A stretch of DNA of 64,000 nt from Escherichia phage vB_EcoA_4HA11, in sequence record MN445184; one strand, given 5' to 3'. Each line of letters starts with the position of its first letter. Within the stretch, counting starts at the first letter, position 1. A model generated the notes under the pieces. The model was not told the DNA's origin. It saw only the letters and a list, made by a program, of their open reading frames with translations, and ran no database searches. The position numbers and the translations under genes are program-made. Shown here piece after piece: positions 588 through 45,210 of this stretch.

Positions 588-917
588 CTACCCCACCAAA
601 ATTTTGTTGTAATCCTGAGCATTTTGCTGTATCAGATCAACTAAGATATCCCCAGACACCACAGTGAACAAGTCATTTTCTTTCAAATTAACAAATAACA
701 AACGCCATGGTTTCTTCAATATATCTGTTGTAAAGGATAACCGAGGCTCTCCATTATCTAAATGGACACCCACTTTCCCTATACGAAATTGAACACCGCG
801 GAACTTGCCTTCCGTTATTTCGATAATAGCTAACTGATCAGAACCAGGGTCGATGATTTTGTAATTAACGGGGGAGTCTCCTCCCCCTGCAATATTACTC
901 GGTTGTTTTGATGACAT
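588..917 (-). CDS. Hypothetical protein, at the position of T4 gene 40 between uvsX and 41
   Basis: 109-aa ORF, ATG start, 23-nt overlap with the uvsX end; identity rests on position only. Confidence 0.4.
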   Translation of the reverse strand: MSSKQPSNIAGGGDSPVNYKIIDPGSDQLAIIEITEGKFRGVQFRIGKVGVHLDNGEPRLSFTTDILKKPWRLLFVNLKENDLFTVVSGDILVDLIQQNAQDYNKILVG

Positions 918-1980
918 TATCGAGGCGCTCCAGCATATCTGCAGGCATAACCGAACTCTGAGAGATACCGAACATGTTGTTCACATCGTCAACAAAGTCT
1001 GGGTTTTCCAGCAACGGATACCAGAAGTCATCCCCCAGCTCTGCCTTACGATATTTCTTTTCTTTTTCTGGATCAAACCCGCCTTTGGCAGTACGTTGAT
1101 ACCAAGAACCACTCACCAAATCCACATACCCCAGCATGCGCGCAATTTCTAACATACCGGACCAACGGTCAATACCGCCTTCATACAACACAGTGACAGG
1201 GAACTTGGCTTTTTCACGGACAAAGCGGCCTTTCATAATGTTGACTGTAAACTGCCATCCCAAAAGGTCTTTGTCTTCTTTTACTTGAGAACGCGTGATG
1301 AACCACAATTGGTTAGAAGACAGGAACCCCTGTTTACCGCCTTTGATGTTCGGCTCGGCGTATTGGTTCCCGATTTCATCATAGTACGAGTTGATCCATA
1401 CCAAAACGAATTTCTTTTCAGTGACCAACGGGGTGATAACACGCCAAAAACTATTGAGAGCGCGAGCGCGGGTCATATCTTGTGTGTCTTTGCCCGCGAT
1501 GGCATCATCAACTTCTTTGGTAGACGGCAACTGGCTGATTGAGTCAATGAATACGATGATCTTGTCACCTTTCTGAGCATCATTCAGAAGCTGTGTCAGT
1601 TTGATCTTCGTCTTTTCAACGTTTTCAATCGGCAGATACAAGACACGGTCCATGTCAATACCCATAGATGTCCAGTAGTTTTCATTCGCACCGCCTTCTG
1701 AATCCGCGAAGATACAAATTGCATCAGGAAACTTATCCATGTAAGCCTTAACATCCACCAGCCCAAACATGGTTTTGAATGTACGAGAATCCCCCACCAA
1801 CTGTTTGATGCCTGATATCAGACCACCATCAATACGACCGGACCAGGCCAAATTCAGAATAGGAATACCCGTACTGCAAATAATGTCAGGCTTCAGCGCA
1901 TCGGTCTTTGACAGCACTTCGGCATTCGGGTCCAGTTTCTTTGCTGTCTTGAGCATGCGAGCCATCAATGAATCGGCCAT
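895..1980 (-). CDS. uvsX: UvsX recombinase (RecA-like)
   Basis: 361 aa. Blocks VLVWINSYYDEIG, GWQFTVNIMKGRFVREKAKF and GGIDRWSGMLEIARMLGYV resemble T4 UvsX; order uvsX-40-41 as in T4. Confidence 0.9.
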   Translation of the reverse strand: MADSLMARMLKTAKKLDPNAEVLSKTDALKPDIICSTGIPILNLAWSGRIDGGLISGIKQLVGDSRTFKTMFGLVDVKAYMDKFPDAICIFADSEGGANENYWTSMGIDMDRVLYLPIENVEKTKIKLTQLLNDAQKGDKIIVFIDSISQLPSTKEVDDAIAGKDTQDMTRARALNSFWRVITPLVTEKKFVLVWINSYYDEIGNQYAEPNIKGGKQGFLSSNQLWFITRSQVKEDKDLLGWQFTVNIMKGRFVREKAKFPVTVLYEGGIDRWSGMLEIARMLGYVDLVSGSWYQRTAKGGFDPEKEKKYRKAELGDDFWYPLLENPDFVDDVNNMFGISQSSVMPADMLERLDNVIKTTE

Positions 1981-2495
1981 TTCGTTTCCTCTTGCTTGTT
2001 GATCGTAATTAATAAATCGGTGCCCAAGACTTTCTTGGACAATATATTGATTGCTTCGTGAATCGCCATTATTGACGGGAGTTTTTCATCGTTAATTTCG
2101 GAACCCCCGCGTTCTGTTAAATACATATTACGCAGACGATTGTGCTGTGCCCTGTTGACACAAGAAACATTCAATGCGATATTCAGGATATACATCATTT
2201 GTTCAGTTGTAACATCCTTTGGAATAGCATGAACATAATATATCGCATCTTCAAAATAGATATGCTGCAATGACTCTGGAATTTCTTCCCCGCCAAAAGC
2301 AAAATCTTCAATGCGTTTAAAAAGTGTTTCCGGCTCTGGTGTTGTAATATGTTGTGTTACAGTAGCCGCACCATTTGGCCCTTTCTTGAAATTGGTCGCA
2401 ATAACGACATGACCGCCTGGTTTAATAAACTCAGCGAAGTTCTCTGCCATGTACGGGGCATGTTCCGCATAATATGATACGACGACTGTAAACAT
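1965..2495 (-). CDS. Hypothetical protein
   Basis: 176-aa ORF in the operon, start/stop overlaps with neighbours; no family recognised. Confidence 0.45.
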   Translation of the reverse strand: MFTVVVSYYAEHAPYMAENFAEFIKPGGHVVIATNFKKGPNGAATVTQHITTPEPETLFKRIEDFAFGGEEIPESLQHIYFEDAIYYVHAIPKDVTTEQMMYILNIALNVSCVNRAQHNRLRNMYLTERGGSEINDEKLPSIMAIHEAINILSKKVLGTDLLITINKQEETKWPIH

Positions 2496-3040
2496 TAGAA
2501 CTCCAGAGTCAGAGGGGTTTCGGCAGACTTGTCATAGTTCGCACCGCCAGCAGCACGTAGACGATTGCGATCGTTCTTGCGCTTGTGCGCCAGCATGTAG
2601 GTTTCGGCATCCAGTCCCAAATAACCACAAGCATACGCAAGGAAAGCAGCCAGCACATTGCGCTCTGGATGAGACATAAAATGCGTAAACAGATTTGTCA
2701 CATGGAGGAAATCTGGCTTTCTCTGAATAGGTTGGTCAGACACATAACCCGTCATGTCGTACATATCATGCGGCTCTGCTTCTTTTTGTATAACGGCACA
2801 CAGCATGAAGTGGACAACATCGACCAATTCATAGACTGCATTAACTTGGTGCCATTGCTGATCATTTCCATAGATCTTCCAACTGGTCGAAACTTCATCA
2901 AGAAATTCCGCCCACTCGCGGTAGATGGAATTCGCCACCGCTACATCGGTCCAATACTTCTTCCACTCTTCCCCAAAATAGGCCACGTTGGTGGCCTTTT
3001 GAAGTTCGAGCAGATTTTTGATATGCTCTGCTGTGATCAT
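2495..3040 (-). CDS. MazG-like all-alpha dNTP pyrophosphatase (gp56-like dCTPase/dUTPase candidate)
   Basis: 181 aa; acidic helical core WAEFLDEVSTSW...AVYELVDVVHFMLCA resembles T4 gp56 and MazG-type pyrophosphatases. Confidence 0.5.
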   Translation of the reverse strand: MITAEHIKNLLELQKATNVAYFGEEWKKYWTDVAVANSIYREWAEFLDEVSTSWKIYGNDQQWHQVNAVYELVDVVHFMLCAVIQKEAEPHDMYDMTGYVSDQPIQRKPDFLHVTNLFTHFMSHPERNVLAAFLAYACGYLGLDAETYMLAHKRKNDRNRLRAAGGANYDKSAETPLTLEF

Positions 3041-3603
3041 TTCCGATCCCTATAAAATTTGACGAATGGTTGCCAACCTTCAAATGGGTTAACAAATTCA
3101 TAATCAACTTCCATCTTATCAATGAAAGCCTCAATGTCATCCTCTATGATACCACCGCGATCCGCCTTTGAAATGCGGGTGATGGGACATTTAGTGCTCA
3201 GCGCCCATTCATATTCCTGAGGGGTGCGCAAATCACTCACGATATAATGAACGTGTGGGTTCTGCTCCACCAAAGGAAGTTGATATCGTTTAAAGAATGA
3301 CAGGAACAGGTCTGGTTGTACATAACGCAAGCCCGTATCGCTGCCCAGATGAAGCCAGATCTGCCGTGGGGTTAAGCCCTTGGGGTTATCAGGGTGTACG
3401 AATGGAACGTCCTTCACAGCATCCTCCACCTCCGCTGGTAGCCATGGGTAGATGAAATTGGCGACACGTCGCAGTTCATCTGAGAAAGACAGACGACGAA
3501 TATCCTTATCACCCTGAATATGATGAAAACTGATCAGGGACTCCAAACAGAAGTCCTTGCCGGAGCGCTTGCGCCCCGTGAAGAATTCAAGGTTCTGGTA
3601 CAT
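3037..3603 (-). CDS. Deoxynucleoside monophosphate kinase (gp1-like)
   Basis: N-terminal P-loop LEFFTGRKRSGKDF resembles T4 gp1 LIFLSGVKRSGKDT; ATG at 3603 overlaps the stop of the upstream gene (ATGA). Confidence 0.6.
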   Translation of the reverse strand: MYQNLEFFTGRKRSGKDFCLESLISFHHIQGDKDIRRLSFSDELRRVANFIYPWLPAEVEDAVKDVPFVHPDNPKGLTPRQIWLHLGSDTGLRYVQPDLFLSFFKRYQLPLVEQNPHVHYIVSDLRTPQEYEWALSTKCPITRISKADRGGIIEDDIEAFIDKMEVDYEFVNPFEGWQPFVKFYRDRK

Positions 3604-4643
3604 CATTCGCCATACCCCCACATAAATTTCTGATCAACAGGGGAATGCAGTAATGCAGTACGAAGACCGTCATCAGCGATACGGCGTTTGTCAATTTTGG
3701 TATCATTGAGGCGACACCACAGGCAATATGACATATCCATCATCAATCCCGTGTCTGCTTGATATCCTTTCAGATGTTCTCTGATTTTACCAAAATCACT
3801 GCCGATGTCACAGTGATGTAACACGCCGAGGAATAGATTACAAATATCTTTTTGCGACTTCACTTTTTCTGAAGAGAATTCCAGCAAAGAATTGTACATC
3901 CCAGAAGAAGTTTTGGTCTTCTTAGTGATACCCCCGAGTTGTTTCCGACTAACTTCATTGTTGTAATAATGAAGATTGTTAGAAAACAGTTTGTAATACC
4001 CAACTTCGACATTCAGCACTTTCGCCAGAACTTCTTGCAGGATAGAGAATTCAATGAAATTGATTGAACTCATGCCCCACAAGACATCTTGGCTGCGGTT
4101 AATGACAGTGATATTCAATCGCCCTTCTGTTATACTGAACAATAGAGCAAGATTACAGATCATGTCCTTGGTCTTGGCTTCTCCAGTTTCACTATGGGCG
4201 GCCAAACCTTCATCTGAGTCCAGCGCCGGATCATAGATGGTGAGATACGCCTGACGGGTGTTGGGATTATTACGCAGACGGCTGATGACACTATCCAACT
4301 GGCCATTATTGTACAGACGTGGGCCATACGCGCCTCGCCAGGTTACACCGTCATCAGAGAAGTTGGCGGCGCGGGGTAAGACTTTCGAAAGGAAACGGAT
4401 ATCATTACGTCCGGACAACACCCAGAATGTCTCACCGATGGCAGCAATTGCCGACGAGTTGCGGCCTTCAACGGAAAGCCAACGGTCACGTGGATCTGAT
4501 ACTGTAATTGTTACACCATCAATGAAACGAGTGCCGTCAGTGTTAATCTCTGCGTTGCCAGGATCTGACTCAATGCCGTGTTCACGGATGGCCAACACAG
4601 CCTTCTTCAGCATATCATTATTGTTTAAAGCAAAAATTTCCAT
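3603..4643 (-). CDS. Thymidylate-synthase-fold pyrimidine C5 transferase (thymidylate synthase or dUMP hydroxymethylase) with ~90-aa C-terminal extension
   Basis: 346 aa from ATG 4643. TS motifs ETFWVLSGRNDIRFL, VTWRGAYGPRLY, NPNTRQAYLTIYDP, catalytic-Cys region KDMICNLALLF, NRSQDVLWGMSSINFIEFS. Asn sits where TS has the uracil-recognising Asn and T4 dCMP hydroxymethylase has Asp. Confidence 0.75.
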   Translation of the reverse strand: MEIFALNNNDMLKKAVLAIREHGIESDPGNAEINTDGTRFIDGVTITVSDPRDRWLSVEGRNSSAIAAIGETFWVLSGRNDIRFLSKVLPRAANFSDDGVTWRGAYGPRLYNNGQLDSVISRLRNNPNTRQAYLTIYDPALDSDEGLAAHSETGEAKTKDMICNLALLFSITEGRLNITVINRSQDVLWGMSSINFIEFSILQEVLAKVLNVEVGYYKLFSNNLHYYNNEVSRKQLGGITKKTKTSSGMYNSLLEFSSEKVKSQKDICNLFLGVLHHCDIGSDFGKIREHLKGYQADTGLMMDMSYCLWCRLNDTKIDKRRIADDGLRTALLHSPVDQKFMWGYGE

Positions 4644-5317
4644 CAATCAATACTCCCAAAATCACGATTGAGAAACGCAAAAACAGCCTGCTCTATAGTC
4701 AGGCCATTGGACTTCATCATACCTGCGGGAACGGTAGGGAACAAGCCTTTATGCCGTTGGCGGTGGTCATGAACTCTCTCCCACTTTTCGACAACCAGGC
4801 TTTCATTGAAGTCTGCGCCGCCGTTGCGTGATTTCACACGGGAAACACAGGTTTCAAGCGGGGTGTCCATGAAGAGCACGACTAATTCGCGCGGTGGGCG
4901 CGTCAGGCGGGGAATCCATGAGCTGAGCAAAGTTGAAGGGATGATTCCTTCAAACAACACGTCATATTTCAGATATTCCGGCTGATCAGCAATGGACAAG
5001 GCGAACAACATCTGCTCGGTATCTTTCAGGGAATCAACACCTTTAGACTTAGACTTGTCATATTTACCAATACAGATAATGTTATAGGAAGGGCAAACTG
5101 TGAGCATGATCTTGCCATTGTAGGTCACGACATACGCCTGAGGATCATTCTCCGCCAGATAGGAAGGGACAGTGGACTTGCCGCTACCGTTGGAGCCTTT
5201 AACGTAATACAACTCTCCTCGTGCCGGATATTCCCCTTCGACAGCAGGTGGTTTTACAAATAGATGTACGGGGCGCTTCAACAACCCTTTGAGCGAATAC
5301 GACATGGTGTGCTCCAA
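4643..5317 (-). CDS. P-loop kinase (Walker A GSNGSGKST), substrate unknown
   Basis: 224 aa; YYVKGSNGSGKST Walker A; immediately upstream of and translationally coupled to the TS-fold gene. Confidence 0.5.
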   Translation of the reverse strand: MEHTMSYSLKGLLKRPVHLFVKPPAVEGEYPARGELYYVKGSNGSGKSTVPSYLAENDPQAYVVTYNGKIMLTVCPSYNIICIGKYDKSKSKGVDSLKDTEQMLFALSIADQPEYLKYDVLFEGIIPSTLLSSWIPRLTRPPRELVVLFMDTPLETCVSRVKSRNGGADFNESLVVEKWERVHDHRQRHKGLFPTVPAGMMKSNGLTIEQAVFAFLNRDFGSID

Positions 5318-5377
5318 TAAACAAAAGGAGCTGCTATTATAGCAGCCCCTTCATCTATTGAATGCTTCTGAATTAAA

Positions 5378-6337
5378 TTACGCAGCAGCTTTCGCTTCGG
5401 CCAACGCCTGTGGCAACCATTCATTGATTGCTTTCACCAGAGATTCGGCATCAGTTTCTTTGATTTTCTGGCGTTTGGTGAATGATTTACCATTCACATA
5501 CAGACTGAACCCCCAGCCGCCGGAAACGATCGGCGCCAGATCAACATAAGTATTGGTGCGGGCGTGTGGATTGGCTTCATCTGCCAGTTCGGTAACAGGG
5601 AACTGGAACCAGCGCATATCCGGATTCACATAGCTCAAATAAACCCCAGGCACAACCCCCGATTCAACCGCAGCCAGGATAGGACCATAATTGGATGCGC
5701 GAGCCGCTTCAACCATTTCTTCACGCTTGTTATGACGACGCTTGCGTTCTTCGGTAGAAGATGCAGGGCGCATTTCAGAAGATTTCTTGGCCAGAACCGC
5801 CTTCGCGTTCGCTAAAGCCTGATCATCCTTCGGATTTTCAACGTCGGCGATTGCTTCAGCAACGGTTGTGCCCAGCATACGACGGCGAACTTCTTCAGCA
5901 CGGGCTTGCGCTTCTTCGTCAAGAACTTCTTCGCCTTCAACTACCAGGGAAATGGAACCGTCTTTGTTGACTTCAAGAGAACCGTCTTCGACGGTCTGGG
6001 AATTTTGATCACCGACAGGTTGCCCAACCGTTTCTTCGGCGTCAATCACCGGATTTGATTCACCGTCGCCCTGTTTAACCCCCGCATCTTCGGTCGGTTT
6101 AACTTTTTCGGCTTCAGCGCGGTCAAGAGCTTCGAGAGTCTCTTCTTTCTCTTCCTGGCTCAGACCTTCAATGAGTTCAAAGCCGTTGGCTGACTGGAGG
6201 ACGCCTTCCATCATACGGCGTAACGTGACGTTGCCGATGATAAGGTCTGCACCTTTGATTTCTGCTTGAAGATCAGCAGCGGTTTTACCATCAATTTCAA
6301 ATTTCAGGCCGGACTCGATATGAAGAATATAGGACAT
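5378..6337 (-). CDS. Hypothetical protein with long acidic low-complexity linker
   Basis: 319 aa; first gene of the operon after a ~170-bp intergenic region; E/D-rich middle between two globular ends. Confidence 0.5.
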   Translation of the reverse strand: MSYILHIESGLKFEIDGKTAADLQAEIKGADLIIGNVTLRRMMEGVLQSANGFELIEGLSQEEKEETLEALDRAEAEKVKPTEDAGVKQGDGESNPVIDAEETVGQPVGDQNSQTVEDGSLEVNKDGSISLVVEGEEVLDEEAQARAEEVRRRMLGTTVAEAIADVENPKDDQALANAKAVLAKKSSEMRPASSTEERKRRHNKREEMVEAARASNYGPILAAVESGVVPGVYLSYVNPDMRWFQFPVTELADEANPHARTNTYVDLAPIVSGGWGFSLYVNGKSFTKRQKIKETDAESLVKAINEWLPQALAEAKAAA

Positions 6338-6510
6338 AATAAAAACCCTTTTGTGTAGTAACCTTCTTTGGCAGTCTAATGTTCAACTGTGCGTCTGGAA
6401 CATTAATATACTGCCTTTTTAGAAGATGTAAACCACTTTTTATTGAAAAGTTGGTTAACACTTCTGTGTTAGACAACGGAACGCTGTATCAGCGCGGACT
6501 GGCGTGAATA

Positions 6511-6798
6511 TTAACTTTGTATATCAATATTGAAAACTGTTTCAGGTGGCCACATGGCAGACAACTCGATCTGTGTGAACTTCGGTTGAACATACTGATC
6601 TAACACTTCATCCCAGAGAGCATGTTCTATGTTAGCAATCAACAATTCGTCGTCCACTATTTCGACGGAATGAACCACTATCCGGTGGTCATAAGTCAAA
6701 GCATCGCTCACATGATCATTTTCTGCTCTCAGGTGCTGCATTATGAAATATTCGATTACAGATTCCAGTACCGTGTTCAGACGAACATATTTCTTCAT
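6511..6798 (-). CDS. Hypothetical protein
   Basis: 95-aa ORF on the coding strand of the block. Confidence 0.4.
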   Translation of the reverse strand: MKKYVRLNTVLESVIEYFIMQHLRAENDHVSDALTYDHRIVVHSVEIVDDELLIANIEHALWDEVLDQYVQPKFTQIELSAMWPPETVFNIDIQS

Positions 6799-6815
6799 AC
6801 AGCCCCCTGCTTGTG

Positions 6816-7562
6816 CTACAGATAGAAATTAGGGATTTCGCCGGATTCACAACCAAACCCGTTAAAATTCTGCTCAACGTGTAAGCGAATTTTATTCACC
6901 ACTACCTGACGATGCTCTTCTTCCATACAACGTTCAATCAAAGAATACGCTGTGTATGACAGACTGTTGAACAATCTGGAAATAACAAGGCAATTCTCTT
7001 CATTGTAAACGACTTCAGTATGGATTGCGAAAGCGTGGTCTTCGTCGGTAAGAATTTTACAGCCTTTGACCACAAATGGTTTTTCAAAGAAATCACGAGC
7101 TGAATCAGTGCCAGATTCTGGCATCAAACGGAAATCACCTTCTTCGCCGAAAACTGCTTTCAGATTTTCTTTACTGAATTCCGCTTCCATCTGTATACGT
7201 TTGTCGGCAAGATATTTCGCCGCAAAGTAGAATTTACCCACTGCATCATTAGCAGCGCGGCGGTTCGTAGCGGCTTGGGTATAACCAGAAACGAAGTCTT
7301 CAATGAATTCCAATGCTTCTGGTTTGCCAAAACGAATTTCGTCGCCCAGATCCAAGCTGGCTTCAGAATCAAGTTCAATACCCATAACCTTAAGAAGATC
7401 CGTTTCATTCAGCCTGTGCTGATTGAACAATTGTTCCTTGGAATATCCCAACTGGCTACCGAGTTCATATCCGGTTTTACCACCCGAATCTTTATGGGTG
7501 CGATCATAACGAACGCAATTAGAACTGAATTCAATACCAAAAATACGATGTAGCTGTGACAT
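6816..7562 (-). CDS. Hypothetical protein
   Basis: 248-aa ORF; no family recognised. Confidence 0.5.
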   Translation of the reverse strand: MSQLHRIFGIEFSSNCVRYDRTHKDSGGKTGYELGSQLGYSKEQLFNQHRLNETDLLKVMGIELDSEASLDLGDEIRFGKPEALEFIEDFVSGYTQAATNRRAANDAVGKFYFAAKYLADKRIQMEAEFSKENLKAVFGEEGDFRLMPESGTDSARDFFEKPFVVKGCKILTDEDHAFAIHTEVVYNEENCLVISRLFNSLSYTAYSLIERCMEEEHRQVVVNKIRLHVEQNFNGFGCESGEIPNFYL

Positions 7563-7623
7563 ATCATAACCTCATGTTTATAGAAAGCCGTTCGCGAATT
7601 ATCACGTAGAACGACTTTTAGAA

Positions 7624-8328
7624 CTAACCATTTTTGTGTTTACGACGTGCGTCCTTCCAAACAGACATCTGACTCTGTTTCTGGAATCGAGCAGTACGCA
7701 TAAACAAAACGACCTCCCAATATTGCGGTTCAATTTCATAAAGTTGTGAACGAAATTGATCTGCGCGGTATAATTTGACACAATGATTGTACAAAGGGTG
7801 ATTCGCAAACCGCTTTAGCGCATCCCAGGTAAGTCTCAAACGTGTTTTAGAACGATATGCCCGTTCATTTCTCAATTTAATGAGATCTTCAAATACCAAC
7901 AATCTGAGTTTAGGCGGTAAATAATGGAGGTTTAGGCCATAAAGATAGGTCACACCACGTTCACCGAATTTCACCCCGTCCCCCTTCACAAAATTGAAGA
8001 AGAACACCAGAGGATACATATCCCAATACGGGAGTTCATCTTTAGTCAGCGCATCATATTTGAAATAATACATGCGACCAACAATATAACGCACACCCTG
8101 AACAGGACGTTTATTTTCAGCGAATGCTTTCATCATGTGATTCGGAGATAAGTTAGCATCTTTCGACACGCGCTCCATAAACCACACATGAGAACGACGG
8201 ATATTACGCTTCGCTTCCGGCCCAAAATGTTGACGATATTTGCGGATGTAACGCTTGACCAGTTCTGGGGCGTCCATCTCGGCGGGAAGCAACAACGGGT
8301 CTTCTTCACCCATAGCGTTCTTAGCCAT
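7624..8328 (-). CDS. Hypothetical protein
   Basis: 234-aa ORF, ATG start at 8328; diverges from the plus-strand late gene. Confidence 0.5.
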   Translation of the reverse strand: MAKNAMGEEDPLLLPAEMDAPELVKRYIRKYRQHFGPEAKRNIRRSHVWFMERVSKDANLSPNHMMKAFAENKRPVQGVRYIVGRMYYFKYDALTKDELPYWDMYPLVFFFNFVKGDGVKFGERGVTYLYGLNLHYLPPKLRLLVFEDLIKLRNERAYRSKTRLRLTWDALKRFANHPLYNHCVKLYRADQFRSQLYEIEPQYWEVVLFMRTARFQKQSQMSVWKDARRKHKNG

Positions 8329-8340
8329 TTGTCAACTCCT

Positions 8341-8348
8341 TATAAATA
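8341..8348 (+). promoter_or_regulatory. T4-type late promoter TATAAATA
   Basis: Exact TATAAATA ~35 nt upstream of GTG 8383, with GGAG between. Confidence 0.6.
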
Positions 8349-8382
8349 TCAACAGATATATTATTTAAATGGAGTCCTCATC

Positions 8383-9324
8383 GTGGAAGACTATCGCAAT
8401 TTTCTAACGCAACTGCTTCAACGGGGTATTTCCCGCAAGAACAGATTTCGTGTTACAATTCCGTTGCCGCCTGGGATATTTGATTCCAATGCAACACTAG
8501 CAAATGATGGGAACGCATATCCTTCATCTTCATTCGGCGATTTATTCAAACAAAGCGCCCGTATTGTAAACGCATTCTTTGGAGGGACAAACCAAACATC
8601 CCGTTCCCTGCAAATGATGTGTATGGTCGCATCTTTACCTGGTACAGGGATTGACACTACTCCCATGACCAACAACGGCAACCACATTAAAATGCCGAAC
8701 AACAAGACGAACATTGATCTGGAGTTGTCGTTCCTCCTCGCCAACGATTATTATGAAAAGTCGGTCATGGACAAATGGAAGAATCTGATATTCGACCCAT
8801 ACACAACCAAGATGGGTTATTATGAAGATTTCGTGACCGATATTTGTATAGAACAAATGGATACAGAAGATCAGGTTGTTCATCGCGTTTATGTGACTGA
8901 GGCTCACCCCATCAACTTCAGTTCTATAGATCTGGATAAAAGCGCCGCCGATCAATTTAATCAGTACAACATTTCCTTTTCTTATAACAAAGTATTATCG
9001 GAGACTGAATATGAAACGCGCAGCCTCGCCAGCGATTTTCTTCCTTTGGGTATTACTGATGCTCTTGCTTCCGGAGACTGGGAAACCGCTGCGTCAAAAG
9101 CCGGACAGCTGTATAAAAAGATCAAAGAAGGAAACTTCACAGGTGAAGCCCTGCTGGCTTATAAGCAACTCGATCAGCTTGTAAACAATCTGGCTGGTAT
9201 CAGCTTGGCTGATTTCGAAAGGATCTCTATCGGCATCCAGAGGGATATATTAGGCAATGATAACCTGACGGCGTCTGAGAAGAGTAGTCTGTTGGGATTG
9301 TTACAGGATGTTGTCAAAAACTAA
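8383..9324 (+). CDS. Late protein, probably virion structural (313 aa)
   Basis: ORF track 8188..9324. Start placed at in-frame GTG 8383, preceded by GGAG and the late promoter; the 8188 ATG would put the promoter inside the gene and overlap the divergent gene. Confidence 0.5.
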   Translation: MEDYRNFLTQLLQRGISRKNRFRVTIPLPPGIFDSNATLANDGNAYPSSSFGDLFKQSARIVNAFFGGTNQTSRSLQMMCMVASLPGTGIDTTPMTNNGNHIKMPNNKTNIDLELSFLLANDYYEKSVMDKWKNLIFDPYTTKMGYYEDFVTDICIEQMDTEDQVVHRVYVTEAHPINFSSIDLDKSAADQFNQYNISFSYNKVLSETEYETRSLASDFLPLGITDALASGDWETAASKAGQLYKKIKEGNFTGEALLAYKQLDQLVNNLAGISLADFERISIGIQRDILGNDNLTASEKSSLLGLLQDVVKN

Positions 9325-9344
9325 AAAGCCCCCGAAGGGGCTTT
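9325..9344. terminator. Bidirectional hairpin terminator between the late gene and gp32
   Basis: AAAGCCCC-CGAA-GGGGCTTT, 8-bp stem, T-run on the minus strand. Confidence 0.6.
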
Positions 9345-9351
9345 AGTGAAA

Positions 9352-10383
9352 TTAGTCTTGCTTCAGGAACTGCTCGAACTCATCAATGGAAGCCGTCTGT
9401 TTCGCATCGGCACCACCATTATTGGCTGGAACAGATTGCTGTGCATTAGAAGGCTGAGATTGTTGTTGGTTCAGACTTTCCTGCGCTGTTGGGCGCTGGG
9501 GTTCCTGAGACTGGGTAGGCGCATGTGCCATAGTAGAAGCACCACCTTCAACCAGAGGCTGATTATCAGGGATGGCCAGAACTTTGCGCAAACGTTTTTC
9601 CAGATCTTCGTACGATTTGAAGTTGGCTGGATTAAAGAACTCAAACAGACTGTGTTCTTTTTCCCAGATCTCTTCAATGTATTCGTCGGTTCCCAGCGGT
9701 GCTGGATTATCCCACTTCACGTTGGTGAAGTTGGCAACCAGGCCTTTCCAGTTTCCGAACTCTTTCTCTTCGCCGTACAGATTCAGAATCAGATTCGCGC
9801 CTTCCCACATATCGAACGGGTCGAATTTCGGGTCGGTTGAGAACTTAGGATTCTGAGCCGAATCCAGGATTTTCTTGACGGCATTACCGAACTCAAGCAA
9901 GAAGACCTTGCCGTTGTTTTCCGGATTGTTGCCATCTTTGATCACCAGGATGTTGGCGTAGTATTTGGTGTCCGGCAGACGCTTTTTGAGAACTGTTTTC
10001 AGCTTTTCATCATTCGTTTCTTTCTGTTGTGCCCACAGAGGACGGTCATGGTCACGAACAGGATCATCGTTACCGAAAGTCTGCGGAGAGTTTTCGATAT
10101 ACCAACCACCAGCGCCCTGGAATGCGTGTTTCATGATCATGGCACACGGAGTTAACACAGCATCTTCAGGGATGGTGCCTTCTTCTTTAGCCTTCATGTC
10201 CACCAAAGGGATCGACAGGAAACGAATGATGTTTTCAGAAGTACCCTTGTCATTCCAGGTCCACTTCCAGATGCGTGGGTCACGACCGCCACCAACACGC
10301 TGGCCTTGCTGAGCGAGTCGCTGTTGCATAGCTTCGGCTTGTTGGCCACGAGATTGTTTAAGACGATCAAATAAATTACCCAT
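9352..10383 (-). CDS. 32: Single-stranded DNA-binding protein gp32
   Basis: 343 aa; YYANILVIKDGNNPENNGKVF and WEGANLILNL match the T4 gp32 core; Q-rich acidic C-terminus. Confidence 0.9.
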   Translation of the reverse strand: MGNLFDRLKQSRGQQAEAMQQRLAQQGQRVGGGRDPRIWKWTWNDKGTSENIIRFLSIPLVDMKAKEEGTIPEDAVLTPCAMIMKHAFQGAGGWYIENSPQTFGNDDPVRDHDRPLWAQQKETNDEKLKTVLKKRLPDTKYYANILVIKDGNNPENNGKVFLLEFGNAVKKILDSAQNPKFSTDPKFDPFDMWEGANLILNLYGEEKEFGNWKGLVANFTNVKWDNPAPLGTDEYIEEIWEKEHSLFEFFNPANFKSYEDLEKRLRKVLAIPDNQPLVEGGASTMAHAPTQSQEPQRPTAQESLNQQQSQPSNAQQSVPANNGGADAKQTASIDEFEQFLKQD

Positions 10384-10479
10384 TTTAATATTCCTCTATA
10401 ATCCGCCCCTTCGGGCTATTCTGTAAATGTATTTGTCAATTATTCCGACGGTGTAATTATACTGCGTTTTGCTATTGAG

Positions 10480-10719
10480 TTAACCCGCAATCATTTGTTT
10501 TGCTGGGTCTATTTCAATAATGTCGTACACATCCGAGAAGGTTTTGTGTCCTTCCAAGAATGTATGGTATTCGATGACATAGGATTTACCTTCCGGCGTC
10601 GTGTAACGTACACGATCCATATCATCAGCATGTTCATTGAGGCTACCGTGACGCCAGCGGATAGAACCTGGCAGATACTCTTGCGCCTTCAACATTTTAT
10701 AGATTTGCTCTTTGCTCAT
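10480..10719 (-). CDS. Hypothetical small protein
   Basis: 79-aa ORF. Confidence 0.4.
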   Translation of the reverse strand: MSKEQIYKMLKAQEYLPGSIRWRHGSLNEHADDMDRVRYTTPEGKSYVIEYHTFLEGHKTFSDVYDIIEIDPAKQMIAG

Positions 10720-32379: not shown

Positions 32380-32690
32380 GACATATCCTCATAATTAGAT
32401 AGATTGATCAAGAAGGACAGGTTCCGGTCATATATGAGGTCAATGGCCTTGCGGCTACCCACAGCCTCACATGTCCAATAACTGTAATTCCCTGCGATCT
32501 TCAATGCTAGTCGGACGACATGACGCCTCATATTGTACTGAGCCAACTGATATCGGGCGCGTGTCTTCTTGCGCCAGCATTGATTCTCCGCTTTGTACTT
32601 GTAGAGGATCATCAGGCGAACGGCTTTGTACAGGCGCTTTTCAGCGCCCTTGGATTTCTTTGATACACGAATCAGGCTACCCATGATCAA
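32376..32690 (-). CDS. Hypothetical basic protein
   Basis: 104 aa, K/R-rich; immediately downstream of gp46. Confidence 0.4.
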   Translation of the reverse strand: MIMGSLIRVSKKSKGAEKRLYKAVRLMILYKYKAENQCWRKKTRARYQLAQYNMRRHVVRLALKIAGNYSYWTCEAVGSRKAIDLIYDRNLSFLINLSNYEDMS

Positions 32691-35020
32691 TCCTTCTTAA
32701 TCACTTCGGTCATGCCATTACGCAGACCATAACGAATGTTATGTTGGAAATATTCTTGGAACTCCTGTTCACGCTGACTGATGACAAACAGATTGTTCCC
32801 ACCAAATTTATGTTTCAGCATCTCAACCGATTCTTGTACGCCACGCTCGCTCATGTTCTCAAGGATTTCATCTAACACAAACAGGTTACATTGCACCGAC
32901 GCCTTGAGGTTGGCCACGTCCCGTAGGGCTAATGTCACAGCCAGATTGAGTCGGCTGCGTTGTCCTGTAGACAGGGAGAATATGCTTTGCCCTTTACGAC
33001 CTGCAGCGCTCATGGTGATTTCAAATGTATCATCAACAGCAATATCCAAGAACATATTGAGTGCTTCAAGATACTCGTTTATTTTACTATTGAGGAAAGG
33101 CAAATACAGGCTGATAATTCGAGCCTTGGTCTGATCATCTTTTAGGAAGAACAGAAGATGGTTCAGGTCTTGCAATTTCTCATCCAACTCTACGCGCCGC
33201 GCATTCAGATCTTCCATTAATGCCGTGATGCGAGCGATCTCTCCTTCCAGGGCTTCAGTTGGTGTCGGCTTAACCGCCAATTTACGCTCTAAATCGGCAA
33301 TGGATGCCTCTAGAGGGGCACGGCGTGATTTCAGGCTGGTGAGTTTATCAGCCGTGTCGTTGATACTCTTAGAGAGCTGCTCACGCGCTTGACGGATTGA
33401 CGTCGTGATATCTTCGTAACGGGTGTCTACGGCCTTGAGGACGTCGTTAATTTTGGACTGTTGTTCCCGCTGTAAAGATGTTTTCTCAACAGCAGCGACA
33501 TCATAGAATCCTTGGATGTCGCGTTTTAATGTAGCGATCGCCGATTCCGCTTCTCGGATTTCATTGCGCAAAGCATCCAGTTCTTTGTCAATAACCGAAA
33601 TCTGAGAAGATAATTCTGAATCTCTGACATTGTAATTCTCAATCAGGGAATTCACTTCTTCTAGGGCTGTATCAACCTGAAGAATCTTGTCAGTCAGTTC
33701 ACTGATTTGTGGATAATATTGACTTTCAATGCGTGATTTGGTATCGTCCGACACTAATTGCGTACACGTAGGGCAAGTGCCCATATCGTGGAAACGTTTG
33801 ATGGCAGATTCATGTCCTTCCATTTCTGTTACGAATTTGATACGGAAGTTCTCACCCTGCTGACGCCGCGCTAATGCTTTGTTCAGTTCATCCAGGTTAG
33901 CATTCCGTTGGCTGACCAGATCATTTTTACGTTCCGCGACTACCGCCATTCTCTCCCGAATTTCTTGTAATGAACGTTCGCCATCAGACACCTCGATACG
34001 TTCATAGTCTTCAGCCTTGGTATCAGCATCATCCTGAACTGCTTGGATTTTGGCCGCATACTCTTCATTGATGGAATCGATATCCACCTTCATTTCAGCG
34101 TTCAGGCGATTACGGACTTCTGATAATTCAGTTTCTAATTTAGAATCTTGGGCACGGAATTCCGTCAGTTCGTCTTGAGAAGCACCAATATCTGAATTCA
34201 AACTATTCAGACGTTCCTTCTCTTGGACAAGGATATCAGCAGATTGTTGCTGGATCATCGCATTGGAATTATTGATCTGTTCCAACTGCGCTTGCTGGCC
34301 TTTTAAATTTACATCATGAAAGGCGTAATCATTGGTGACCGTCGTGAGTTCATTCGTTACTGTCTTGATAGATGCTTTTACATCTTCATTCATCAGACTG
34401 AAGAACCCCAAATCCCAGATTGTCTCTACCATAGCGCGACGGTCGGCAGTGTACATTTCCGTGAATGGGATGAACTTCTCTTTGCCCAGAACCAGGGAGT
34501 TCTCAAACATCTTCTGGTCCACGCCAATCAGGTTCACAATATATTTGTTCATGTCGGCTTTGGCCGCATCATTCACGACCTTCTTCCACTCACCGTCTAC
34601 CATCTGATAGACTTCTACGAAATCAGGTTTGATACCACGACGGACTTTCCATTCACTTCCTCGAGTGGAGAACTCAACTTCACCCACGCATTCCTTTTTG
34701 TTTTGGGAATTGACTAATCCGGCTTTCTTTTCTTTCTTGCTGTATGTGTCATTATACAGAACGAAGAACAGCAGCCAGACAAGCATGGTGGATTTACCAG
34801 CGCCATTGTCATCGGATGTAACCAAGGTTGCCGAATTGCGTTGGTAATCAATTTCCATGAATTCATTACCGATAGAACGGAAGTTTTTAGCGCGACCGCG
34901 ATGGAAAGTCAGTTTGTGGGTAATTTCCCCACGGATTTCAAATGGTGCTTCAACAGAAACAGGAGTGTCCGCTTCTTTCAGAAGGGAACCGAATTTAGAC
35001 AGTAGATCTACATTGCTCAT
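32687..35020 (-). CDS. 46: Recombination endonuclease subunit gp46 (Rad50/SbcC-like ATPase)
   Basis: 777 aa; Walker A DDNGAGKSTML, long coiled-coil middle, C-terminal signature/Walker B region LFVLDE; follows gp47 as in T4. Confidence 0.85.
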   Translation of the reverse strand: MSNVDLLSKFGSLLKEADTPVSVEAPFEIRGEITHKLTFHRGRAKNFRSIGNEFMEIDYQRNSATLVTSDDNGAGKSTMLVWLLFFVLYNDTYSKKEKKAGLVNSQNKKECVGEVEFSTRGSEWKVRRGIKPDFVEVYQMVDGEWKKVVNDAAKADMNKYIVNLIGVDQKMFENSLVLGKEKFIPFTEMYTADRRAMVETIWDLGFFSLMNEDVKASIKTVTNELTTVTNDYAFHDVNLKGQQAQLEQINNSNAMIQQQSADILVQEKERLNSLNSDIGASQDELTEFRAQDSKLETELSEVRNRLNAEMKVDIDSINEEYAAKIQAVQDDADTKAEDYERIEVSDGERSLQEIRERMAVVAERKNDLVSQRNANLDELNKALARRQQGENFRIKFVTEMEGHESAIKRFHDMGTCPTCTQLVSDDTKSRIESQYYPQISELTDKILQVDTALEEVNSLIENYNVRDSELSSQISVIDKELDALRNEIREAESAIATLKRDIQGFYDVAAVEKTSLQREQQSKINDVLKAVDTRYEDITTSIRQAREQLSKSINDTADKLTSLKSRRAPLEASIADLERKLAVKPTPTEALEGEIARITALMEDLNARRVELDEKLQDLNHLLFFLKDDQTKARIISLYLPFLNSKINEYLEALNMFLDIAVDDTFEITMSAAGRKGQSIFSLSTGQRSRLNLAVTLALRDVANLKASVQCNLFVLDEILENMSERGVQESVEMLKHKFGGNNLFVISQREQEFQEYFQHNIRYGLRNGMTEVIKKD

Positions 35021-35022
35021 TA

Positions 35023-36138
35023 TTATGCATCCAATGTGTTCAGGCGTTGTTGGGCAGCATTATAGAATTGTTCTGCTAATTTGCAAACATTTTCAGGGCG
35101 CTGGATATTATTGGCGGCGCGGATATCTTTCTTCAAGACTTCCACCGCATCAGTAGCCACCATCTCTTCAGTGACTTCTACCTTCTCGGAAGCAACAGTA
35201 ATCGTCCGATCGATGAAGTTGTAATCGATGCATTTACAGCGCTTCAATGCGTCACAGAACTTTTCATAATGCTTGGCATTGTCACGGTTCTGTACAATCA
35301 CCTTAACGATTTGCCCTTCAATACCCAAAACATTGTTTAACCAATCGGGGTCGATCCAATTACCTTCAGTATCAGAAGACATTTGGGTGTAGTCGTATTC
35401 CACGAACCGGAACAACGTTTGTTGTTCGTTGTTGGGGATAAACAATTCCCCGCCATTCATGTCGTCTACATAGAATCCTCGGTTCGTCCCGTCTTTGTGG
35501 TCTTCCCAGGTAAGGTGATAAGGAGTCCCAATATACTGAATGTTACCTTCCATCGAACGGGTATGGAAATGTCCGGTATCCACGCGCTCGAATTTCGAAA
35601 GGAGCGCCAAGTCGATCTGACCTTTATCACATACAGAGGACTGGTACATTTTGAACCCTGCCAACTCCAGATGCGCAAAACAGTACTTGGCGTCTGTATC
35701 TTGTATCGCTTTAATGGACGCATCATAGTTCTCTTTGTTAATCCACGGCAGTAGGAGGGTCTTGACACCTTCAATCATTACTTCAGTTGGTTCGCTGTAA
35801 TAATGATAAACATCCGGTGCCAATTCATTAAGATAAGAAGGCCAGTTAATACGATTGGACTCTTCTAACGTGATATCATGGTTGCCGACGATGCCATTCC
35901 ATTTAATACCTGCTTTGCGCAGCGCTGGCGTCAATTCATCTTTCAACCAATCTTTATCGCGACCATACATGAATTTGCGAACATCAAACGTATCACCAAA
36001 TTGCCAAACTTCTTTAATATCGGCGTCAACCAATTCTGGAATAAAATAATTGATGAGATAATTCTTTATGAATTCTCGAACGTAACGGGAACCATTACGG
36101 CTCCCAATATGTAAATCGCCAATTTTAGCAATCGCCAT
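35023..36138 (-). CDS. 47: Recombination endonuclease subunit gp47 (Mre11/SbcD-like phosphoesterase)
   Basis: 371 aa; calcineurin-like phosphoesterase motifs IGDLHIG, GDTFD, GNHD, GHFH. Confidence 0.85.
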   Translation of the reverse strand: MAIAKIGDLHIGSRNGSRYVREFIKNYLINYFIPELVDADIKEVWQFGDTFDVRKFMYGRDKDWLKDELTPALRKAGIKWNGIVGNHDITLEESNRINWPSYLNELAPDVYHYYSEPTEVMIEGVKTLLLPWINKENYDASIKAIQDTDAKYCFAHLELAGFKMYQSSVCDKGQIDLALLSKFERVDTGHFHTRSMEGNIQYIGTPYHLTWEDHKDGTNRGFYVDDMNGGELFIPNNEQQTLFRFVEYDYTQMSSDTEGNWIDPDWLNNVLGIEGQIVKVIVQNRDNAKHYEKFCDALKRCKCIDYNFIDRTITVASEKVEVTEEMVATDAVEVLKKDIRAANNIQRPENVCKLAEQFYNAAQQRLNTLDA

Positions 36139-36931
36139 TATTTTGTTGCTCCCGTTCTAATGCTCGTTTCTTTGCTTCTTCCCAATCTGGTTCCATAGAA
36201 CATATTTCGTCTTCCAGATTGAATTGAGTAGAGCCGAAGTCATAGTCTGAATTATCTTCGGCGTCGGCGGTAATGGTATTTTCACTCTTTGTGAGACATT
36301 GAAGTATACCGCGAGGAATTTTCTTATTCTTTTCCTCTTCTTTGATGGCGATTTGCTTTTGGCGTTCCTTTTCGCGCTGGGCTTCTTTCTTAGTTTCAAA
36401 ATTTCCGATACGCTCACGAAAGTCCATTGTTATACCAGTGCTGTCTACGAATGTCTGTTGCTGGAAGTCTGGGTCATCTGATAATGCAGCGAAACCACCT
36501 GCTTCTTCAAATGAACGCAACTTGATATAATTGTGTTCTTCTTCACTGGTGAGTTTCTTGGCGAATGAACGATCGGCGCACATCGTTACCCAAGAGAAGA
36601 AATTGATTTTTCCTTTCTTGCCGATATGACTGACGTCAAATGTATGGAGGTAACGAAGGATGTTGACAACGGCCTCACTGACCATGTCTTCGCGGTATGG
36701 ATAATCACGATAGTTGTAGCGCATACTCATGTTCTTAATAATCATCTGAACATTCATGGCCACATAATTGGGGATTCTTGGTAGGGGTGTTCCTTCGGCC
36801 AAAGCCTTTTTGCGAGCCGGAATCCAATCTCTCAATATTCCAACAACACGGTCATTATCTTCGTCTGTGAAATATTTGGTGACGTTATCACCCCTGTCTA
36901 CAAAATTCATACCCATCGTGATAATCCTCAA
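36125..36931 (-). CDS. 55: Late-transcription sigma factor gp55-like, with C-terminal extension
   Basis: 268 aa; RYNYRDYPY...ILRYLHTFD...NFFSWVTMCADRSFAKKL parallels T4 gp55 RFNFSGY...IKGLHNFDE...AYITQACFNAFVQRIKKE; sits upstream of 47-46 as in T4. Confidence 0.65.
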   Translation of the reverse strand: MRIITMGMNFVDRGDNVTKYFTDEDNDRVVGILRDWIPARKKALAEGTPLPRIPNYVAMNVQMIIKNMSMRYNYRDYPYREDMVSEAVVNILRYLHTFDVSHIGKKGKINFFSWVTMCADRSFAKKLTSEEEHNYIKLRSFEEAGGFAALSDDPDFQQQTFVDSTGITMDFRERIGNFETKKEAQREKERQKQIAIKEEEKNKKIPRGILQCLTKSENTITADAEDNSDYDFGSTQFNLEDEICSMEPDWEEAKKRALEREQQNNGDC

Positions 36932-37455
36932 ATACCAATGAATTCATTGAAAGAACCAACGACTTTCTTGACCGAGAAACGGTTATTTTCAAGAACCATT
37001 GAACTATCTTCTTTGGCTCTAACGCTCCACTGATCCGCAATTTCGTTGCCCATCGTTCCTGCATGACCTTTCACCCATTTTAATTCAAGTTCACAAATTG
37101 AACAAACTTTGTCATAATAATCGAACAACTCGAGCAGAAGTTCTGTGTTCTTAGGCGGCATTCCTTCATATTCCCATTTACGACGCCACTCCAAAACGCT
37201 ATTGATAACATATTGGCTGTCGGATATAATGCGGGCTGGGGGAATGCAGCGTTCACCACAATTAGAGAATTTCCATAGGATCTTCATTGCGTTTATAACC
37301 CCGAGTAACTCAGCTATATTGTTCGTTGACGGCGGGGGTAAATACCCATAAAACACTTTCCATTGCTCTCCAGTGATTGGACTGATGGCAAATGCCCAAC
37401 CAGCGGCTCGTGTCTTCTGAGGGGACGATGCCCCGTCAGTGTATATTTCAATCAT
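36928..37455 (-). CDS. Ribonuclease HI
   Basis: ORF track 36928..37470; ATG 37455 (MIEIYTDGAS). RNase HI motifs IYTDGAS, NNIAEL, KWVKGHAG, GNEIAD. Confidence 0.75.
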   Translation of the reverse strand: MIEIYTDGASSPQKTRAAGWAFAISPITGEQWKVFYGYLPPPSTNNIAELLGVINAMKILWKFSNCGERCIPPARIISDSQYVINSVLEWRRKWEYEGMPPKNTELLLELFDYYDKVCSICELELKWVKGHAGTMGNEIADQWSVRAKEDSSMVLENNRFSVKKVVGSFNEFIGI

Positions 37456-37497
37456 GTATAAGTATCCCAAACTGGTTTTATCGATGAGGAACGAATC

Positions 37498-38265
37498 ATG
37501 TCAGAACGCGCATATCGTTTCAGTCTGACCGCCCCAGAAATTGAGCGTTTGCTCTTGTCCATAAACGACTCCATCCAAAAGCTGGACATCGTATATGACT
37601 ACACGGCGGGTGGGACTGAAGGTCAGGTCGCAGCTGCGTCAGCTGTCAAAAACATGTGGCTAAAACTTAATGAGATGGTCACAGGTGAAGGTCTTAAAGA
37701 CGCAATCAATGCAGCTAACGACAGCAACGTATTCACCGATTATTATAAGTCTATTTTAGATCGCGAAACTTGGAAATTTATTGGTTCTCCGGCAGATTTA
37801 TTAGCAAGGGACGATATAGACACTTCCAATTTTGAAGGCGGTGAAGTAATCCTCCTACAAAAGAACGCTTCGGGCAACCCAGAATTCCAATACTGGAAAA
37901 GAACTCCTGTGGCAGGAGGTGATCCAATATTTGGTTGGGAATCTGTTTATGAAGGAAACTCCAACGACTCTTCTATTGATATTCCGGTTGTTGGGACCAG
38001 CATACTGAAGACAATCCCAAAAGCATTGTTTCATATGGTCGAATTCCGAGTACACGCTCGAGAGTCTACCCTCGGTCATTGGCAGGACACTGATGGCAAA
38101 ATCGGTTATCGTGGTGAAGATCTGATTTATAGCCTGTATAATCATGTTCAAACCAAACCGATCGCAAATATATCTTTCAGCCAAGATGTGGACAATATGA
38201 TTATCACGATAACGACACTTGAACCAAATATCAAGTGCCATTTATCGTTTATTGCGGGTTATTAA
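37498..38265 (+). CDS. Hypothetical protein (plus-strand islet)
   Basis: 255-aa ORF with GAGGA SD; no exact late promoter found upstream. Confidence 0.45.
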   Translation: MSERAYRFSLTAPEIERLLLSINDSIQKLDIVYDYTAGGTEGQVAAASAVKNMWLKLNEMVTGEGLKDAINAANDSNVFTDYYKSILDRETWKFIGSPADLLARDDIDTSNFEGGEVILLQKNASGNPEFQYWKRTPVAGGDPIFGWESVYEGNSNDSSIDIPVVGTSILKTIPKALFHMVEFRVHARESTLGHWQDTDGKIGYRGEDLIYSLYNHVQTKPIANISFSQDVDNMIITITTLEPNIKCHLSFIAGY

Positions 38266-39983: not shown

Positions 39984-40035
39984 GTTGTTCCTCCTTTGGA
40001 TTCTGTTATAGTTTACCCGAATCCCAACAACGAAA

Positions 40036-40059
40036 AAGCCGAGGCATTAACCTCGGCTT
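40036..40059 (-). terminator. Hairpin terminator downstream of the HU-like gene
   Basis: AAGCCGAGG-CATTAA-CCTCGGCTT followed by TTTTTCG on the minus strand. Confidence 0.6.
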
Positions 40060-40118
40060 CTCCTTTTAGCCTTGCGCCGCTGCACTGCAGACATGCGCTG
40101 GGCCGACGCCTGGTGTGA

Positions 40119-40397
40119 TTACTGGCCGTTGGCAGCAGCTTTCAGACCTTCACCGACTTTGAATTTAACTACATTTTTCGCTTCGATCTGGATCTGTTGT
40201 CCGTTCAGCGGGTTGCGGCCAGTGCGCGCTTCCTGATGTTTAACTTCGAACGCGCCGAAGCCTACGAATTGGACAGATTGGCCAGCCGCGACTGCAGTTT
40301 TCACGCCATTGATAAAAGATGCAACGATTTTCTCAGCTTCGCCTTTGGTCATACCCTGGGTTTGAGCGATGTGGGCGATAAAATCAGTACGGTTCAT
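40119..40397 (-). CDS. HU/IHF-family DNA-binding protein
   Basis: ORF track 40119..40433; ATG 40397 (MNRTDFIAHIAQ) with GGAG SD; GFGAFEVK...RTGRNP arm motif. Confidence 0.7.
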   Translation of the reverse strand: MNRTDFIAHIAQTQGMTKGEAEKIVASFINGVKTAVAAGQSVQFVGFGAFEVKHQEARTGRNPLNGQQIQIEAKNVVKFKVGEGLKAAANGQ

Positions 40398-40480
40398 TCG
40401 GATTACTCCAGTTGGTTGTTTACGATGTTTCACTACAAGAGGACTACAGCTTACCTAACAAATATTATTGAATAAAGCGT

Positions 40481-42745: not shown

Positions 42746-42801
42746 AATATAGATCTCTCAAATAAAGGCGGTTTAATAATAACCGCCCTTGTATTATAGA
42801 A

Positions 42802-43605: not shown

Positions 43606-43642
43606 CTTTCAGTTCAATGGGGAATAAAATTTTAACCTGAAA

Positions 43643-45178: not shown

Positions 45179-45210
45179 GACACACCTCGGGATATAGGGT
45201 TATCCCTTAG

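Follow-up and report, generated by a model that had tools for sequence, protein, structure and literature searches.

Four overlapping genes on the minus strand of Escherichia phage vB_EcoA_4HA11 (sequence record MN445184) almost certainly form the front end of the thymidine hypermodification pathway published for ViI-type phages of the genus Kuttervirus. They lie at positions 2495-5317 of a stretch of 64,000 nucleotides (nt), hereafter the window, and encode a P-loop kinase, an enzyme with the fold of thymidylate synthase (TS), a deoxynucleoside monophosphate (dNMP) kinase, and a pyrophosphatase of the dimeric dUTPase family. The pathway, its product 5-(2-aminoethoxy)methyl-dU (5-NeOmdU; dU, deoxyuridine), and the activity of the kinase are already known, having been published for phage ViI between 2018 and 2021 (PMC5889632, PMC8989533). 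An original prediction, made from the nucleotide sequence of the window, had read these genes as a candidate thymine modification module. The comparisons reported here support that interpretation, although the module is the front end only, with the transferase and decarboxylase genes placed elsewhere in the genome.

The list of open reading frames (ORFs) of the window holds four minus-strand entries at 2495-5317, with lengths in amino acids (aa):

4643-5305, minus strand: P-loop kinase, 220 aa
3603-4643, minus strand: TS-fold protein, 346 aa
3037-3606, minus strand: dNMP kinase, 189 aa
2495-3040, minus strand: nucleoside triphosphate (NTP) pyrophosphatase of the dimeric dUTPase family, 181 aa

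All four begin with ATG, as in the ViI genome record Vi01. The window itself derives from a Kuttervirus (ViI-like Ackermannviridae) and is collinear with about 33.5-97.5 kb of Vi01. A megablast search with positions 1900-6400 returned 269 phage records, nearly all of them Ackermannviridae; nucleotide identity over this region reaches 96.3% with phage Mutine and 95.4% with Vi01, both among the best matches. Positions 40000-64000 are 99.8% identical to Salmonella phage S117. The genes, order, and overlaps of the ViI 5-NeOmdU pathway are all as in the window, and the kinase, hydroxymethylase, and dNMP kinase of the two phages are 99.5-100% identical.

Assignment of the TS-fold protein as a putative dUMP hydroxymethylase

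The 346-aa protein is best explained as a dUMP hydroxymethylase, and comparison with its relatives, together with the chemistry of ViI DNA, points to 5-hydroxymethyl-dUMP (5-hmdUMP) as its product. The original prediction had favored such a dUMP-directed enzyme over plain thymidylate synthase and had pointed to a retained catalytic cysteine and uracil-reading asparagine. Both residues are confirmed in a MAFFT alignment of six sequences (the TS-fold protein, E. coli ThyA, T4-like td, T4 gp42, SPO1 gp29, and YuA gp17). Cys163 aligns with C146 of E. coli. Asn195 aligns with N177, a position at which T4 gp42 carries D179. Arg183, Ser184, and Asp186 correspond to R166, S167, and D169 of the E. coli enzyme, and His225 and Tyr227 to H207 and Y209. 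Among 50 family members, C163, R183, S184, D186, H225, and Y227 are invariant. The Asn195 column holds Asn in 47/50 and Asp in 3/50, and the occurrence of Asp in these few relatives fits a position that tracks the substrate. The hydroxymethylase clade thus probably includes some cytosine-directed enzymes.

A T4-like dCMP hydroxymethylase was considered for the window protein and ruled out. By alignment, the base-reading residue is Asn195 and not the Asp of T4-type enzymes, and BLASTP against T4 gp42 returned no hit.

Conservation of the dUMP site would also be expected of a true TS surrounded by genes for routine nucleotide salvage, that is, of ordinary dTMP synthesis. Public records adopt this view: Vi01_060c, identical over 346/346 aa, is annotated 'thyA', and thymidylate synthase is the GenBank/RefSeq label. 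Every residue for dUMP binding and covalent catalysis is kept, the protein passes the PF00303 cut-off with 54 bits, and about 60% of the thymidine in ViI DNA is plain. However, the six matching NCBIfam TS equivalog models gave 32-53 bits against cut-offs of 108-405, and none was passed (the top score was 52.9 bits against a cut-off of 327). Identity amounts to 32-35% with SPO1 gp29 and YuA gp17, compared with about 23% with true TS. Clustering with bona fide thymidylate synthases, which the original prediction had named as evidence to the contrary, is absent. BLASTP scores reach 119 bits for SPO1 gp29 and 124 bits for YuA gp17, as opposed to 48-55 bits for E. coli ThyA and T4-like td, which score 242 bits against each other. 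The tblastn searches agree, with E=3e-27 to the dUMP-hydroxymethylase side versus E=7e-4 to true thymidylate synthases.

The active site also departs from TS across the family. The residue after the catalytic cysteine is Asn164 instead of His, and Asn occupies this position in 48/50 family members. The folate-side segment Trp80-Asp-Glu-Trp83 of E. coli gives way in the 50 relatives to an invariant S-D-D preceded by Phe or Tyr. In the window protein, the W83 column holds Phe95 and the W80 column is a gap, the latter as placed by the six-sequence MAFFT alignment only. Unlike TS, the 50 relatives carry Asp in place of Leu143. Moreover, the substrate of the neighboring kinase is 5-hydroxymethyl-dU (5-hmdU) in DNA, and no second annotated TS-superfamily gene occurs in Vi01 32,497-42,960 and 60,000-157,061, a survey from which 1-32,496 and 42,961-59,999 were left out. 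Ordinary dTMP synthesis is accordingly very unlikely, and the dUMP hydroxymethylase assignment is preferred.

Structural modeling is consistent with this assignment. An AlphaFold2 model built on the family alignment has a predicted local distance difference test (pLDDT) of 94.2 and a predicted template modeling score (pTM) of 0.93, with residues ~240-346 modeled confidently as a helical region. The best Foldseek match in the PDB is the CMP hydroxymethylase MilA, with a template modeling (TM) score of 0.73 and ~351 aligned columns that include the C-terminal helices. Foldseek probability is 1.00 for MilA and for many TS structures, but the latter align over only ~236-270 columns. In the model, a helical domain of ~105 aa stands where TS has a short C-terminal tail for closing the active site. 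The C-terminal extension of ~90 aa noted in the original prediction was therefore roughly right in length, the excess over E. coli ThyA being 82 aa; within the hydroxymethylase clade it is not atypical. SPO1 gp29 (383 aa) and YuA gp17 (351 aa) are similarly long, which identifies the extension as the normal architecture of the clade, and MilA shares it. The profile and structure searches proposed earlier as a check thus place the protein nearest to SPO1 gp29 and YuA gp17 by sequence and to MilA by fold.

Several of the 50 hydroxymethylase relatives are 500-560 aa long and so must hold an extra domain.

The P-loop kinase as a putative 5-hydroxymethyluracil DNA kinase

The 220-aa protein appears to be a 5-hydroxymethyluracil DNA kinase (5-HMUDK) orthologous to ViI gp67, an activity transferred from an assayed protein to which it is identical at 219/220 aa (99.5%). 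The note attached to the corresponding ViI gene, Vi01_061c, reads orf00067, which identifies it with the published gp67. Purified ViI gp67 phosphorylates 5-hmdU in DNA, and gp243 does likewise (PMC8989533). In addition, 5-HMUDK genes co-occur with dUMP hydroxymethyltransferase genes (PMC5889632). The window kinase matches PF18748 (HMUDK_HMUD1, '5-hmdU DNA kinase') with E=1.7e-116 and 387 bits against a cut-off of 27, and it covers the profile in full (positions 1-196/196). A Walker A motif, G37-S-N-G-S-G-K43-S-T45, can be read from the translation and is kept in the homologs of Vibrio phage K356 and YuA; identity is 41% to the K356 equivalent and 31% to YuA gp13.

With Walker A present and PF18748 as the sole significant Pfam family, the statement of the original prediction that the kinase is not a thymidine kinase stands. 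Its proposal of a kinase for a further step was right about the step; the substrate is 5-hmdU in DNA and not a free nucleotide, as shown with gp67 (PMC8989533). Other searches were less informative. BLASTP between the kinase and the second ViI kinase, gp243, gave a barely detectable E=0.086, so that pairwise sequence comparison cannot link these paralogs. A sequence search of solved structures with the kinase returned nothing usable, and NCBIfam holds no model for it.

Many RefSeq records instead name this P-loop protein a small terminase subunit. The name is shared by phrog_800, 'terminase small subunit', which matches with E=1.5e-68, and the RefSeq label arises because of phrog_800. Nevertheless, a gp16-type small terminase is already encoded in ViI, adjoining the large terminase (111,350-112,030). 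Of the 511 positions of phrog_800, 2-220 match the kinase and 376-472 match the helical domain of gp160-type proteins. Judged by these matches, phrog_800 is a kinase/aGPT-Pplase fusion family that has been mislabeled. Given also the full-length PF18748 match and the biochemical identification of gp67 as a DNA base kinase, a terminase role deserves practically no credence, and the 5-HMUDK assignment is retained. The same mislabel reaches distant phages, for example the kinase of Vibrio phage K356 at 4252-4911.

The immediate use of these assignments is annotation correction. The hydroxymethylase is recorded as 'thymidylate synthase', and the DNA base kinase as 'terminase small subunit' or 'hypothetical protein'; both entries should be corrected.

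Nucleotide supply and a possible regulator

For the 189-aa protein, the profile match is to phrog_139, 'deoxynucleoside monophosphate kinase' (E=3.3e-48), and identity to Vi01_059c, annotated 'dnk', is complete (189/189 aa). Support is confined to the PHROG level, as the protein has no Pfam match over the cut-off, no NCBIfam model, and no PDB sequence match. Its gene invariably adjoins the hydroxymethylase gene in Ackermannviridae and Vibrio phages. Homologs detected by tblastn were confined to Ackermannviridae, a subset of Vibrio phages, and a handful of others, with no link to T4 gene 1. On the strength of the PHROG profile, the protein is a putative phage dNMP kinase that would convert 5-hmdUMP to 5-hmdUDP.

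The 181-aa protein was described earlier as a MazG-like pyrophosphatase. The enzymatic class holds, but the family is more precisely the dimeric dUTPase family PF08761 (dUTPase_2), matched with E=4.2e-11 and 43.8 bits against a cut-off of 22.9 over positions 2-159/162. It also matches phrog_173 (E=2.4e-40), and its best solved relative is the Campylobacter dUTPase 1w2y (E=8e-4). The NCBIfam dUTPase equivalog model gave 28 bits against a cut-off of 300. The protein is therefore placed in this all-alpha family, with a predicted role in hydrolysis of dUTP, possibly also of dTTP, feeding dUMP to the hydroxymethylase. Both this role and that of the dNMP kinase are proposed by analogy with 5-hydroxymethyluracil phages and T4.

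A further gene follows directly:

1965-2495, minus strand: ACT-like domain protein, 176 aa, PF24021

The match to PF24021, 'Phage ACT-like domain', has E=3.6e-86, and NCBIfam holds no model. ACT domains are usually small-ligand binders, and this protein is possibly regulatory.

Proposed pathway and chemistry of the virion DNA

The gene products can be arranged into a sequence of steps whose pre-replicative scheme is described in PMC8989533. The dimeric-dUTPase-family enzyme would convert dUTP to dUMP. By homology, the TS-fold enzyme would then use the Cys163 thiolate and methylene-tetrahydrofolate to add a one-carbon unit at C5 of dUMP. Homology to SPO1 gp29 and the chemistry of ViI suggest that the exocyclic methylene is resolved by water and not by hydride, giving 5-hydroxymethyl-dUMP. 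The phage dNMP kinase may carry 5-hmdUMP to 5-hmdUDP. Host nucleoside diphosphate kinase would complete 5-hmdUTP, which the phage polymerase would insert in place of T, by analogy with 5-hydroxymethyluracil phages. After replication, the kinase would phosphorylate the hydroxymethyl group of 5-hmdU in DNA, as shown for ViI gp67. Replacement of the phosphate by serine through gp247 and decarboxylation by gp226, both shown for ViI, would then yield 5-(2-aminoethoxy)methyl-dU. The modified base blocks many restriction enzymes.

Published work supports the later steps. Lysates containing gp67, gp160, gp226, gp243, and gp247 turned 5-hmdU DNA into 5-NeOmdU (PMC5889632). The serine:DNA transferase gp247 acts on the phosphorylated base, and gp226 is a pyridoxal phosphate (PLP)-dependent decarboxylase of its product (PMC8989533). 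Besides the kinase gene, which adjoins the hydroxymethylase gene, the window holds an ortholog of gp160, one of the ViI hypermodification genes (PMC5889632):

53690-54916, minus strand: gp160 ortholog (aGPT-Pplase clade 1), tblastn 78% over 405 aa, PF18723

This protein matches PF18723 (HMUDK_hel) with E=1.7e-83, again with no NCBIfam model.

Whether virion DNA carries a modified thymine was treated as an open matter in the original prediction, but for this phage group the answer had been published as 5-NeOmdU (PMC5889632, PMC8989533, PMC11721090). According to a 2024 review (PMC11721090), 5-NeOmdU makes up about 40% of T in virion DNA of Vi01 and CBA120, the modification genes are conserved across Ackermannviridae, and DNA of this kind defeats about 60% of the restriction enzymes sold commercially. 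In a 2026 preprint, high-performance liquid chromatography-mass spectrometry (HPLC-MS) confirmed 5-NeOmdU, at 16% of T, in phiHS2, a further member of Ackermannviridae whose gene set is the same (bioRxiv 10.64898/2026.05.19.726188). DNA of this phage and of its many biocontrol relatives should therefore be treated as partly modified and resistant to restriction, with consequences for cloning, restriction mapping, nanopore base-calling, and sensitivity to host defense systems.

Some observations weigh against the assignment of the four genes to this pathway. The activity of the ViI-type hydroxymethylase was assigned by homology and context (PMC8989533, PMC5889632), and no enzyme assay for it was found in the literature. 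Searches of the 64-kb window by tblastn with ViI gp226, gp243, and gp247 gave chance-level matches only (E>0.3). These genes lie at ~140-152 kb in Vi01, beyond the stretch collinear with the window. As the phage is nearly identical to Kutterviruses with complete genomes, the three genes are expected in its genome as well. The 181-aa protein is 84% identical to Vi01_058c, lower than its neighbors. Finally, the ~60% of plain T in ViI DNA is not explained by the four-gene module.

This last point invites the view that the TS-fold protein is a dual-outcome enzyme, releasing both 5-hmdUMP and dTMP and so producing a mixture of T and 5-NeOmdU. Only ~40% (ViI) or 16% (phiHS2) of T is modified, and PMC5889632 describes the path leading from 5-hmdU to T as unknown. 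The present comparisons are compatible with partitioning between hydration and hydride transfer. The published papers, however, explain the mixture by processing of 5-hmdU in DNA in a sequence-specific manner, citing labeling of PhiW-14 and SP10. The active-site departures from TS are, moreover, family-wide and common to SPO1 gp29, whose phage replaces T completely. A dual-outcome enzyme is for these reasons highly improbable.

A related proposal, somewhat less remote yet still quite unlikely, is that the ACT-like protein and the dUTPase-family enzyme set the share of hypermodified and plain T, through dTTP exclusion or ligand-controlled supply of 5-hmdUTP, or that the hydroxymethylase partitions. 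Either possibility, if true, would bear on where the ~60% of plain T in ViI DNA originates. For the four genes, the favored explanation remains a ViI-type pathway front end that includes a dUMP hydroxymethylase.

Comparison with other modification systems

The SPO1 enzyme gp29 resembles the window enzyme in its TS fold, Cys-Asn pair, uracil-reading Asn, long C-terminal extension, and F-S-D-D segment, and the two are 34% identical (119 bits). In the account given in PMC8989533, which cites Wilhelm and Ruger 1992, gp29 is a dUMP hydroxymethylase. SPO1 differs in that it stops at 5-hmdU, with T fully replaced, and is without 5-HMUDK; the unique hypermodification gene set was not found there (PMC5889632).

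Of the solved structures, the mildiomycin CMP 5-hydroxymethylase MilA (PDB 5jnh, 5b6d) ranks first in the sequence search (E=1e-17) as well as in the fold comparison (TM 0.73). It differs in its substrate, CMP, in the Asp at the base-reading position (phmmer), and in its place in bacterial secondary metabolism, and structural-alignment identity is ~19-20%.

In T4, genes 42, 1, and 56 encode dCMP hydroxymethylase, dNMP kinase, and dCTPase-dUTPase, respectively. This trio follows the same logic as the window genes, with a monophosphate provided by a pyrophosphatase, hydroxymethylated by a TS-fold enzyme, and phosphorylated again by a dNMP kinase of the phage. The hydroxymethylase gene lies upstream of uvsX in both phages. 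T4 differs in that the pyrimidine is cytosine, with Asp179 in place of Asn195, and in that glucosylation, not phosphorylation, follows replication.

Both enzyme families are also present in the Pseudomonas phages M6 and YuA, which make 5-NedU and carry a gp54-type 5-HMUDK; YuA gp17 and gp13 are 32% and 31% identical to their window counterparts. These phages differ in using glycine transfer, a radical-SAM (S-adenosylmethionine) isomerase, and decarboxylation to 5-NedU (PMC8989533). The M6/YuA group further differs in its siphovirus virion and in modification genes that do not form an overlapping chain with uvsX.

Gene order is also kept in Vibrio phage K356 (157 kb). Its positions 4252-10644 retain the eight-gene order from kinase to DnaB-like helicase at ~40% protein identity: the kinase, hydroxymethylase, dNMP kinase, and pyrophosphatase genes come first, then a single gene, uvsX, another single gene, and the helicase gene. 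This arrangement suggests thymine modification of the same type in an unclassified group of marine phages.

Gene layout and flanking features

Two further features frame the chain:

895-1980, minus strand: uvsX
5324-5352, minus strand: terminator-like hairpin with a 13-bp stem and T-rich tail, from a consensus scan (pattern match only)

From the kinase through the TS-fold protein and dNMP kinase to the pyrophosphatase, the genes overlap by 1, 4, and 4 nt (TGATG, ATGA, ATGA). The ACT-like gene shares 1 nt with the pyrophosphatase gene and 16 nt with uvsX. Farther downstream, tight packing extends over the ACT-like gene, uvsX, an ORF of 109 aa, and the gene for a gp41-type helicase. As this packing goes on past the pyrophosphatase to the helicase, the coupled unit is longer than four genes. 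The original prediction of four translationally coupled genes is thus borne out in number and in the overlaps of 1-4 nt, but the four are only the head of a chain of ~8 genes. Its parallel with the location of T4 gene 42 relative to uvsX also holds, the order in the T4 record being 41-40-uvsX-segA-b-gt-42.

The hairpin sits between the kinase start and an upstream 319-aa gene, which it separates from the chain. In several phages, Mutine and Maynard among them, the matching nucleotides bear a 'terminator' annotation. A sigma-70 promoter scan found none in the spacer of 72 nt that precedes the kinase gene, and counts across the region were at the level of shuffled sequence.

Identity to ViI is mosaic along this single gene chain, ranging from 100% (hydroxymethylase, dNMP kinase) down to 72.9% (UvsX), which implies recombination breakpoints near 3040 and in or near uvsX. 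The ACT-like protein is 93.8% identical and the gp160 ortholog 78%. The lower values of the dUTPase-family enzyme, UvsX, and gp160 correspond to ordinary mosaicism within the genus, and no functional difference is indicated.

A perfect direct repeat of 202 nt occupies 1-202 and 318-519, with a spacing of 317 nt. It lies inside the gp41-type helicase gene and cuts the reading frame, with ORF 189-587 stopping early. The repeat is single-copy in reference Kutterviruses, and positions 1-1000 of the window map onto 799 nt of them. An artifact of assembly or of the contig edge is more probable here than biology.

Two features accompany the gp160 ortholog at the other end of the window:

54965-55828, minus strand: second NTP pyrophosphatase, phrog_2144 'MazG-like', E=6e-135
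53286-53693, minus strand: zinc-ribbon-like ORF, 135 aa, phrog_16119

The second pyrophosphatase adjoins the gp160 ortholog, has no Pfam hit, and is 99% identical to gp049 of phage dinky. The zinc-ribbon-like ORF overlaps the stop of the gp160 ortholog by 4 nt.

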